Part shown: positions 44,057 through 53,603 of the stretch, one piece after another
Layout of the letters: every line of letters begins with the position of its first letter
Position numbering within the stretch: position 1 is the stretch's first letter
Source of the DNA: Squalus acanthias
Lineage: Eukaryota
Direction: 5' to 3'
Length of the DNA: 64,000 nt
Assembly (NCBI GenBank): GCA_030390025.1
Contig: JASTWF010000333.1
Coordinates: forward strand, 310,001-374,000
Translations under genes and position numbers: made by a program
Notes under the pieces: model-generated
Told to the model about the DNA's origin: nothing
Databases searched by the model: none
The model's input: only the letters and a program-made list of their open reading frames with translations

Positions 44057-45779
44057 TGTAGAATTCGCAATATATCGCGATTTGATTAATAAGGAGAAAA
44101 CACAAAGTTTCGTTCAAACAGCTTTTATTTCAGCAGAATGCTGGCAGGTTTAAATTGGACACAAGCAGCCTGTAAAATGGCCGCCGCACCTCGTGACAGA
44201 ACATTCTAGACTTTTCAACAGGCAGACAAGATGGCGTTCCATTAAACATTTGTGCAAGATCGATAACGATTCAGCACAGTGAAGATAATACACGAGACAT
44301 TATGGGTTTGCAGTATAAACATAGATACTGGAATCGGTCTCCCAGGTACAAAGGAAAGCCATTGTACCGAGTAATCAAGGGCCCATCCAAAAGACATTAA
44401 TATGTAAAATCCCAACGACTCTACGATGAGAGAGCTGTTAGCAGGTAGTTATACAGGACACTTGGAAGCCCCAAACCCCTCCAGGGAGAACACCGACCGA
44501 TTTAACAATGGGAGAAATATTAACAGGTACTCAGACATTTATGAGTAGCCCCGAAACCCATTAAGAACGGAGATCACCCATACAAGACATTTGGGCGCCA
44601 AACCCTAAACAAAAGAATGGACATTATAGTTGGGCGGGAAACGGAAGATTTTTGCACTATAATTGCAGGCTCCAAACCGTCCATTCTCTCTCTTGCTCTT
44701 GCATTCGCTCGCTTGCTCCTGTGTTTTTATCCGGTCGATTCGTAACCTCGTGGCTGCTCCTGTGTACTCGTAGTTGGGCTTCGGCTTGCCTGTTGCCTCT
44801 TCTGAAAAGACTGTTGAACTTTCTGATCCGTTCGGATCTACCTCGTGTCGCGTAACGAAGACCTATGTTGGTAACTGGCAGCGGAACCAAAGGCCCGAGA
44901 TGAGATGAGATGAGATGAGATGAGATGAGAAGAGAGGAAGACCATATCCATCGCCACGGTCAGTAAATCCCGACCGCGCCTGTAGGTCGATCAGCCAAGT
45001 TTTCCTCGCCAGGAAGATTTCTATTTTGAACTTTTAACAAAACATATTGCATCGACGATAACGGGACTGTGTCCAAGGAGATTGGAACGTGAAAACACAT
45101 CGTATCGATGATATTGACAACTGTGCTCCAAGAGTACCTGTTAAACCAACCAACACAGGTCTTCATCACAGCAGACGGTCCAGCCTGCTAGCCGGAGCAG
45201 CAGAAGCAAGTAAACAAGTGGGACCAGGAGATCTCCTGACCGACACGTGGGTGCTGCGGTGAAAAACATCCGATCAGCTATTCGGAATTTCTCCGAGTTA
45301 TCACGAGTGGTGAGCATGAGTCTCGAGATCCTACGAAGCTAGTTTAGGATAGATATTGATAGGGGAGGGTTTAAGGATTAAGGATATTTGTAATGTGTGC
45401 CCCTATTTACTTTGTGCCGTTCGTTCCTCGTTTCCCTAAGATCGACTATATAACTGTTTGTAAGATTGTACTGTCATTAATCTGTGCTTATGACATGTAT
45501 TTCATAATCTTAAGTATCATGCAATAAAGATTTTCCATTTCGTACCATTCAAACCAAGTCTACATGAGTTTTATCTCCATTACTGCTCTCGCATCTAAGT
45601 CCAGTGTCTAGAACCGTAAGGGAGAGTGATTCGAACCACTCACAGGTGTGTCTAGTGTTCCCAGACTGGCTGGAGACCAGAACAGGCAACCAGGCCTAGA
45701 CCCGCACTGACATACAGGCTGCACAGAGCCGCGTGAATCTCACAGGCTGCGAGACACGCAGGGTCAGGAATCCCTTACA
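44057..45779 (+). repeat. 5' LTR
   Basis: Starts TGTAGAATTC, ends CCCTTACA. Candidate TATATAA at 45447-45453, AATAAA at 45523-45528, internal (GAGAT)n tract. Confidence 0.95.
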
Positions 45780-45783
45780 GAAA

Positions 45784-51868: not shown

Positions 51869-51880
51869 AACAGGAGGGAC
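51869..51880 (+). promoter_or_regulatory. Polypurine tract
   Basis: AACAGGAGGGAC immediately before the 3' LTR TG. Confidence 0.8.
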
Positions 51881-53603
51881 TGTAGAATTCGCAATATATC
51901 GCGATTTGATTAATAAGGAGAAAACACAAAGTTTCGTTCGGGCGGCTTTTGTTTCGGCGGAGTGCTGGCGGGTTTGGATTGGACGCGGGCGGCCTGTGGG
52001 GTGGCCGCCGCGCCTCGTGGCGGAACATTCTGGACTTTTCGGCGGGCGGACGGGGTGGCGTTCCGTTGGGCATTTGTGCGGGATCGGTGACGATTCAGCG
52101 CGGTGGGGATGGTGCACGGGGCATTATGGGTTTGCGGTGTAGGCGTGGATGCTGGAATCGGTCTCCCGGGTGCAGGGGAGGGCCGTTGTACCGAGTGGTC
52201 GGGGGCCCATCCAGGGGACATTGGTGTGTGGGGTCCCGGCGGCTCTGCGATGAGAGAGCCGTTGGCGGGTGGTTGTACGGGACACTTGGGGGCCCCGGGC
52301 CCCTCCGGGGAGAACGCCGACCGATTTGACGGTGGGAGAGGTGTTGGCAGGTGCTCGGACATTTATGAGTGGCCCCGGGGCCCATTGAGAACGGAGATCG
52401 CCCGTGCGGGACGTTTGGGCGCTGGGCCCTGGGCAGGGGGGTGGACATTGTGGTTGGGCGGGAAACGGAAGATTTTTGCGCTATGGTTGCAGGCTCCAAA
52501 CCGTCCATTCTCTCTCTTGCTCTTGCATTCGCTCGCTTGCTCCTGTGTTTTTATCCGGTCGATTCGTAACCTCGTGGCTGCTCCTGTGTACTCGTGGTTG
52601 GGCTTCGGCTTGCCTGTTGCCTCTTCTGAGGGGACTGTTGGACTTTCTGGTCCGTTCGGGTCTGCCTCGTGTCGCGTGGCGAGGACCTATGTTGGTGGCT
52701 GGCGGCGGAACCAAAGGCCCGAGATGAGATGAGATGGGATGAGATGAGATGAGAAGAGAGGAGGACCGTGTCCATCGCCACGGTCAGTGAATCCCGACCG
52801 CGCCTGTAGGTCGATCAGCCAAGTTTTCCTCGCCAGGAAGATTTCTATTTTGAACTTTTAACAAAACATATTGCATCGACGATAACGGGACTGTGTCCAA
52901 GGAGATTGGAACGTGAAAACACATCGTATCGATGATATTGACAACTGTGCTCCAAGAGTACCTGTTAAACCAACCAACACAGGTCTTCATCACAGCAGAC
53001 GGTCCAGCCTGCTAGCCGGAGCAGCAGAAGCAAGTAAACAAGTGGGACCAGGAGATCTCCTGACCGACACGTGGGTGCTGCGGTGAAAAACATCCGATCA
53101 GCTATTCGGAATTTCTCCGAGTTATCACGAGTGGTGAGCATGAGTCTCGAGATCCTACGAAGCTAGTTTAGGATAGATATTGATAGGGGAGGGTTTAAGG
53201 ATTAAGGATATTTGTAATGTGTGCCCCTATTTACTTTGTGCCGTTCGTTCCTCGTTTCCCTAAGATCGACTATATAACTGTTTGTAAGATTGTACTGTCA
53301 TTAATCTGTGCTTATGACATGTATTTCATAATCTTAAGTATCATGCAATAAAGATTTTCCATTTCGTACCATTCAAACCAAGTCTACATGAGTTTTATCT
53401 CCATTACTGCTCTCGCATCTAAGTCCAGTGTCTAGAACCGTAAGGGAGAGTGATTCGAACCACTCACAGGTGTGTCTAGTGTTCCCAGACTGGCTGGAGA
53501 CCAGAACAGGCAACCAGGCCTAGACCCGCACTGACATACAGGCTGCACAGAGCCGCGTGAATCTCACAGGCTGCGAGACACGCAGGGTCAAGAATCCCTT
53601 ACA
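51881..53603 (+). repeat. 3' LTR, A-to-G hypermutated over 51940-52789
   Basis: Same length as the 5' LTR with no visible indels; preceded by a purine tract; differs almost only by A/G in its 5' half. Confidence 0.95.

Follow-up and report, generated by a model that had tools for sequence, protein, structure and literature searches.

In the genome of Squalus acanthias, a provirus of an endogenous retrovirus (ERV) family carries one unedited long terminal repeat (LTR) and one LTR dense with A-to-G changes, a pattern that is likely host RNA editing written into DNA. The provirus occupies positions 44057–53603 of the window, the 64,000-nucleotide stretch of contig JASTWF010000333.1 analysed here (assembly GCA_030390025.1, forward strand, positions 310,001–374,000). 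Its 5' LTR (44057–45779) and 3' LTR (51881–53603), delimited by LTR alignment and, for the 5' LTR, by comparison with relatives, are both 1723 bp long, have TG...CA ends and are flanked on each side by the target-site duplication (TSD) TGCT. Gap-free alignment of the pair reveals 150 differences; in 147 of these, the 5' LTR has A where the 3' LTR has G, and the others are one T>C, one C>T and one G>A. The best reading of this asymmetry, to which we give moderate credence, is intermolecular plus-strand transfer involving two co-packaged RNAs, only one of which was edited.

The first-pass annotation of the window had placed the edits in the 3' LTR only, and this holds for all of them. They form a tract at LTR positions 60–909 (window 51940–52789, plus strand), in which 147 of 256 adenosines are changed, compared with 0 of 22 at LTR 1–59 and 0 of 228 at LTR 910–1723. 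The direction of the change is set by relatives of the provirus, which at 29 of 30 loci show four or fewer A-to-G differences from the 5' LTR, and comparison of the internal region with 14 relatives revealed no excess of A-to-G changes. The U3 is edited, as annotated, but the tract is not confined to it: edits affect 128 of 199 adenosines at LTR 59–630 and 19 of 63 (30%) at LTR 631–940, and thus extend, more thinly, for about 300 nt beyond the predicted TATA box (LTR 602), the start site being a prediction as well. ADAR enzymes prefer U or A over C, and C over G, as the 5' neighbour of the edited adenosine. In the window, the edited fraction is highest after T (37/47, 0.79) and A (57/76, 0.75), lower after C (39/62, 0.63) and lowest after G (14/71, 0.20), and the pooled values for the 22 edited events described below are 0.33, 0.30, 0.21 and 0.10 for T, A, C and G, respectively. 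Moreover, T>C and G>A remain near background in the other edited events. From the sequence pattern, it is likely that the A-to-G changes were made by ADAR acting on viral RNA. One of the three remaining differences, the C>T, lies in a CpG that was itself created by editing (LTR 543–544), which indicates ageing of the tract after it entered the genome. Genome searches with LTR pieces found no second locus with the edit set of the window, the best other match reaching 89–92%. None of the contigs shown from four public runs, which can neither phase the LTRs nor reveal RNA ends, matches the window tract over its full length; the two DNA runs among them contain short pieces of differently edited LTRs. 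Of the public runs with matches, none is recorded as RNA.

Editing recurs within the family. The genome was searched with unedited and edited LTR pieces, the 40 best candidates being scored per search (of 468 to 3917), and 114 LTR sequences were compared, leaving out five LTRs of one search and 40 matches to a more distant subfamily. Among the sampled LTRs, to which all counts refer and from which no editing rate was derived, there are 22 edited events including the window, that is, 21 elsewhere in the genome. In pairwise comparison, each of the nine largest events differs from the others in both directions, and they lie on different haplotype backgrounds, implying that they are independent; for small events, independence cannot be shown from the edits alone. 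Identical edit sets at unlinked loci, which had been proposed as a sign of conversion or of replication of edited copies, are thus absent among these nine.

For 13 events with at least 10 edits and both LTRs complete, the two LTRs of a pair can be compared. Edits are common to both LTRs in 10 of these (C3, C4:135.7, C9:48.2, C11, C22, C26:26.7, C37:31292, C2561, C3627 and C3781), whereas three pairs are one-sided: the window and C37:13771/34143 are edited in the 3' LTR only and C3267 in the 5' LTR only. The consistent 3'-only bias envisaged by the first-pass annotation is therefore not seen. The second 3'-only case has 44 edits and the TSD CTCT, and the 5'-only case about 95 edits and a 3-bp TSD (AAT). 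All three are all-or-none across 300–850 bp. Furthermore, the two LTRs within C37:13771/34143 and within C3267 are also distinguished by indels (34 and 48 bp) close to the U3/R border and by substitutions that reach as far as U5; such length-wide differences imply that the two LTRs derive from different templates. Events outside this set comprise C6:57.3 Mb, whose truncated 5' LTR is identical in the overlap, C3449 (6 changes) and C10:70.55 Mb (3–4 changes), both symmetric, and the solo or unpaired LTRs at C4:66.5, C7:95.2, C7:130.5, C24, C26:6.2, C36 and C25. In addition, among 25 pairs with few or no edits, 4 are discordant at two polymorphisms or more that other loci also carry. Together with the one-sided edited pairs, this indicates that unequal LTRs are a general minority outcome in this ERV family, which the edits expose. 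The one-sided share, 3 of 13, has a 95% interval of 5–54% and, assuming that the partner RNA is always unedited, corresponds to an intermolecular fraction of 0.13 (0.03–0.37).

Several loci of the family have a composite structure. C22:50752677-50778829 is an LTR-int-LTR-int-LTR tandem; its three LTRs are edited identically (130 A-to-G changes), it has a single TSD (GCTC), and it is best regarded as a duplication that followed insertion of an edited copy. In another tandem, C26:26688279-26712300, the third LTR has no matching TSD and lacks 5 edits of the first two, interleaved with edits that it keeps, which looks like either patchy repair or a lineage edited in two rounds. At C37:5000-38000, at least three family members are nested, a lightly edited provirus lying inside the 3'-only edited one. 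Apparent 3-bp TSDs occur at L067/L179 (AAT) and L082 (TGC), 4 bp being usual.

An assembly chimera of two loci or haplotypes could in principle join an unedited to an edited LTR. The family is large and young and its copies are almost identical, the contig, judging by its number, falls short of chromosome scale, no locus-spanning read was seen and no long contig with the exact edited tract is among those shown for the four public runs. However, the integrity of the insertion, already pointed out in the first-pass annotation, is supported: the duplicated TGCT is intact at 44053–44056 and 53604–53607, each junction between provirus and flank is unique in the 3.7-Gb assembly, and the host LINE (long interspersed nuclear element), whose left part lies at 43500–44052, resumes at 53608, the left and right flanks being spanned by two other copies of this LINE across a 4-base gap. 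Moreover, the edit set was found at no second locus, the family has two further one-sided and ten symmetric cases, the 5' LTR carries a near-private base of its own (LTR 380), and the C>T in the edit-created CpG shows ageing in the genome. We consider a chimera very unlikely.

Even less credible, in our view, is deamination of adenosines in a single LTR, either as DNA or as an RNA:DNA hybrid, one of three explanations that had been offered for the asymmetry. One-sided tracts would arise directly in this way, and a review describes ADARs editing DNA in hybrids in model substrates (PMC12925331). By contrast, RNA editing before reverse transcription predicts symmetric pairs, and 10 of 13 pairs carry the same edits in both LTRs. 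Editing of minus-strand DNA in the hybrid formed during reverse transcription would furthermore read as T>C on the sense strand, whereas all events are A>G, although A>G-edited queries could miss T>C copies. Finally, tracts often end where the U3/R border is predicted, as is characteristic of reverse transcription. Of the other two explanations, intermolecular transfer fits best and gene conversion is kept as a rival.

The edited tracts tend to share a left edge. With a minimal polymorphism mask, 10 of 22 events start at LTR 60–62, and among pooled adenosine observations, which are not independent, 6 of 415 are edited at LTR 1–58 (5 of them from one event) versus 144 of 416 at LTR 59–125; in this pooled count, the polymorphism mask also hid genuine edits, among them those at 60, 71 and 97. 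The only TTTATT of the LTR, at positions 68–73 (window 44124–44129), corresponds to an AATAAA on the minus strand and is retained in 59 of 61 unedited LTRs. A GU-rich run lies 15–20 nt beyond this antisense signal (about 44097–44107, minus strand), past a predicted cleavage site near LTR 52–58. Poly(A) sites have a characteristic geometry and TATA boxes a characteristic spacing to the start site, and the predictions use both. An antisense RNA, proposed from these signals in the sequence, likely defines the editing duplex: if it ended at the predicted site, it would pair with genomic RNA from about LTR 55 on. Such an RNA might start at a promoter in R/U5 or stem from host transcription that runs into inverted LTRs. 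On the antisense strand there is one ATG frame of 51 codons inside the tract and two (58 and 68 codons) lie farther right. No inverted match longer than 23 bp that could serve the tract as pairing partner was found in the window, and thus the partner in the duplex was probably a separate RNA. Folding of LTR 1–1044, done without a shuffle control, gave short branched stems only, and an intramolecular hairpin was rejected as the ADAR substrate. The antisense AATAAA is itself edited at LTR 71 in 13 of 22 events, including the window (51951), and copies edited there would lose the predicted antisense stop. As for the right edge, it lies at LTR 606–619 in C22 and C3267, adjoining the predicted U3/R border. 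Edges close to the predicted start, 30 nt after the TATAAT at LTR 602, are expected if R was copied from an unedited RNA 5' end, whereas a tract reaching LTR 909, as in the window, would point to an early first jump within a long R or to an edited 5' R.

In the canonical scheme of reverse transcription, the two LTRs are identical (PMC6894440). We propose that antisense transcripts crossing the LTR are cleaved near LTR 52–58, which would fix the left edge of the duplex seen in the tracts, and that an enzyme, presumably ADAR, edits the 3' end of the genomic RNA. Minus-strand synthesis would then fix the edits in U3 and in R as far as the first jump, which in the window would have occurred beyond LTR 909. 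Plus-strand transfer would usually be intramolecular and place the edits in both LTRs, as in the 10 symmetric pairs. In a minority of cases, the strong-stop DNA may come from the other genome, so that each RNA contributes one whole LTR, in either direction; the three one-sided pairs could have arisen in this way. The outcome at the window locus would be a copy with a working-looking 5' promoter whose daughters receive a U3 that has lost the predicted TATA box, much as in a self-inactivating vector.

Intermolecular transfer is consistent with further properties of the one-sided cases. They occur in both directions, and the window and C37:13771/34143 have integrase-type TSDs. The two LTRs of the window share one haplotype, otherwise found in 2 of 37 unedited loci in a sample enriched for close relatives; under intermolecular transfer, this would be explained by co-packaging of RNAs from one source. 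Moreover, the internal region (45780–51880) is nearly identical to those of the pol-bearing copies C6:55.2 Mb and C2:99.9 Mb, with few differences outside the deletion junction. Both copies share the LTR haplotype of the window, while the window has the pol-less junction of a non-autonomous lineage. Its internal region is thus likely a recombinant of helper and dependent RNAs, which would mean that mixed particles occur. Intermolecular second transfer has been argued for HIV-1 (human immunodeficiency virus type 1; PMC5651808).

Several observations weigh against this account. On the side of the duplex, 12 of 22 tracts start elsewhere than at LTR 60–62, one at 29 (C11, which may reflect a longer antisense RNA), one with a lone change at 43 and ten farther right, and antisense transcript, antisense 3' end and sense start site are all predictions from the sequence. 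On the side of transfer, the one-sided cases number only three, the TSD of C3267 is only 3 bp long (AAT), and the second transfer is described as generally intramolecular in cell culture (PMC5651808). Furthermore, some pairs are partially discordant: two adjacent edits are absent from one LTR of C3627, the third LTR at C26:26.71 Mb lacks its five interleaved edits, and C3449 has discordant polymorphisms at the left end. For such patterns, conversion or patchy repair seems the better match. Post-integration gene conversion is an alternative, in which either the 5' LTR of a symmetric provirus was overwritten by an unedited copy or the 3' LTR of an unedited provirus by its own edited cDNA. Conversion of LTRs is frequent, most tracts in plants measuring 100–1000 bp (PMC7251063), and self-derived cDNA would account for the shared haplotype. 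However, the three large cases add or erase a whole tract, and no large partial tract is present in the 13 edited pairs. The element is also very young, its LTRs differing at 3 sites in 1723 bp apart from the edits, which leaves little time, and the genome searches found no edited chromosomal donor with the window pattern. In addition, conversion within elements is reported in the same paper to be much commoner than between elements (PMC7251063), and would remove the asymmetry. We regard conversion as an unlikely explanation, ranking below the one that follows.

The last point against transfer is the placement of the two non-CpG private changes of the window, at LTR 380 in the 5' LTR and 1711 in the 3' LTR. 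It is as expected if a resident solo LTR without edits took up an edited cDNA, circular or linear, by recombination with the crossover to the right of the tract, both changes then sitting in the former solo LTR. The old U3 would stay in the 5' LTR, the edited U3 would come to lie in the 3' LTR and the old TSD would survive. All-or-none tracts would also be accounted for, as a divergence of 25% would suppress crossover inside the tract. Moreover, integrase-independent insertion at resident elements has been shown for fission-yeast Tf1 (PMC11042837), and the ERV family has tandem arrays (C22 and C26:26.69 Mb). On the other hand, the private changes that speak for such capture are two in number, resident LTR and incoming cDNA would have to match in a rare haplotype (present at 2 of 37 sampled loci), the 5'-only C3267 would require a crossover within the first 59 bp, and the C22 tandem with its identical LTRs fits self-duplication instead. 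Capture by a solo LTR thus appears unlikely, although it is the foremost of the alternatives to intermolecular transfer.

Editing has consequences for the promoter. The predicted TATA box, TATAAT, lies downstream of a GC box and is intact in the 5' LTR (LTR 602–607, window 44658–44663, plus strand), whereas in the 3' LTR it is turned into TATGGT (52482–52487). By the measure of at least two positions changed, or the core, the predicted box is lost in 5 of 22 events (window, C11, C22, C3267 and C3627). The window copy could still be transcribed from its unedited 5' promoter; in its daughters, both LTRs would have the broken U3, and these copies would likely be silent. The first-pass annotation had stressed inheritance of a CpG-rich U3, and the tract does go from 37 CpGs to 75, but of the two lesions, losing the predicted TATA box is the more direct one. 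No daughter of the window copy was found, and most unedited copies likewise have none. Loss of the predicted TATA box suggests that ADAR can silence daughter copies by a route separate from that of APOBEC. The expected distortion of LTR-based dating is also borne out: dating assumes that LTRs are identical at birth, and the naive divergence of the window pair is 8.7% versus 0.17% without the edits, a 50-fold overestimate of age; 4 of 25 unedited pairs look unequal by haplotype as well.

The value of the family lies in the natural experiment that it provides on RNA editing and strand transfer in vivo. It holds what is likely a genomic record of RNA editing made heritable repeatedly in one ERV family, in which the edge of a vanished duplex is legible in DNA. 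Since the edits tag single RNA molecules, they could, in a full census, gauge in vivo the frequency of second-genome use in plus-strand transfer and the site of the first jump, both of which are usually measured in culture only. Tentatively, these observations might be combined as follows. With its antisense poly(A) site close to the start of U3, the family would keep sense-antisense duplexes within the LTR, and ADAR would then disable daughter promoters but leave env intact. RNA editing would thereby become a heritable brake on amplification in the germline. The edits would act as barcodes, according to which about one in eight reverse transcriptions (0.13; 0.03–0.37) builds its LTRs from different genomes, so that LTR pairs would often be unequal at birth.

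The remaining features of the provirus, all on the plus strand, are those of a pol-deleted retrovirus. By sequence, a PBS-like stretch (primer-binding site; TGGCG...) lies 5 nt past the 5' LTR (45785–45802) and a polypurine tract ahead of the 3' LTR (51869–51879); in the relatives sampled, the former follows every 5' LTR and the latter precedes every 3' LTR. A sense AATAAA (LTR 1467; 45523–45528, repeated at 53347–53352) would mark the predicted end of the long R. The list of open reading frames (ORFs) contains a gag-like ORF (45784–47595; stop-to-stop frame 45700–47595) with no Pfam match above the cut-off, whose opening ATG overlaps the start of the PBS-like stretch (45784–45802). Its stop is TGA followed by CTAG (47593–47599), with the next ORF in frame, and the arrangement is the same in a pol-bearing relative; we take it to match a read-through context. 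That next ORF (47596–48744), recognized from the ORF list and relatives, stands in place of the missing pol enzymes, about 3.6 kb of pol being replaced by about 245 bp of other sequence. The env-like ORF (49085–51436) has relatives in skate and sawshark records and no Pfam or PDB match; specifically, PF00523 was not found in Env at an E-value of 0.1, and the first Atlas match (0.84) has no family. Elsewhere in the window, six head-to-tail copies of a repeat with a 54-bp period lie within a long minus-strand frame (10856–11287).

The pol-bearing relative encodes RVP, RVT_1, RT_RNaseH, RNase_H, Integrase_H2C2 and rve domains, the second RNase H following a tether. The family accordingly shows Retroviridae-like features, namely LTRs, a PBS, a polypurine tract, the order gag-pol-env and a second RNase H after the tether domain. 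The reverse transcriptase (RT) of this relative is about 50% identical to those of its nearest matches, frog and coelacanth elements. In a quick RT tree without named references, it is separated from gypsy-like rows (support 97) and lies among the frog and coelacanth elements without finer placement.

Known systems contain the ingredients of the proposed scheme. A-to-G hypermutation of avian retroviruses was reportedly described by Felder in 1994 and by Hajjar and Linial in 1995, and the second strand transfer of yeast Ty1 is said by Lauermann and Boeke (1997) to take place in trans. A review lists an A-to-G hypermutated U3 of Rous-associated virus and the inverted-repeat region of avian leukosis virus (PMC12925331). 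As in the window, about half of the U3 adenosines are G in an avian provirus, and the changes are ascribed to ADAR; unlike here, these are single exogenous isolates, whereas the present data comprise 22 genomic events with a common edge and with both LTRs comparable. Three proviruses of bovine leukemia virus (BLV) have A-to-G clusters in the U3 of the 3' LTR (PMC8025556). The BLV case resembles the window in the ADAR-like cluster reported for the 3' LTR and in the antisense transcripts of the virus, but it is somatic, spanning about 70 bp with at least 7 changes, whereas the tracts here reach 850 bp and 147 changes and both LTRs are resolved. For HIV-1, intermolecular second transfer likewise yields one LTR per co-packaged genome (PMC5651808, as argued there); it was deduced from next-generation breakpoints, whereas here the first-generation product itself would be preserved, marked by edits.

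APOBEC G-to-A editing of vertebrate LTR elements similarly left deaminase scars fixed in genomic retroelements (PMC4866542). That screen concerned another enzyme and another change: in the main text, which does not contain the word ADAR, G-to-A was selected and A-to-G filtered out. Lokiretroviruses, deep-branching ERVs of fish and amphibians, share with the family the order gag-pol-env, the succession PR-RT-tether-RNase H-IN and an RxxR cleavage site in Env, as outlined in PMC7947760. By RT, all other retroviruses form the sister group of lokiretroviruses, and lokiretrovirus Env is similar to paramyxovirus F (PF00523), to which the window Env gave no match. In the literature searched, in which subscription journals are poorly covered, no germline, family-wide record of ADAR-edited ERVs was found. 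Overall, each ingredient is already known from other systems, and what differs here is the repeated, heritable germline record with a defined duplex edge.

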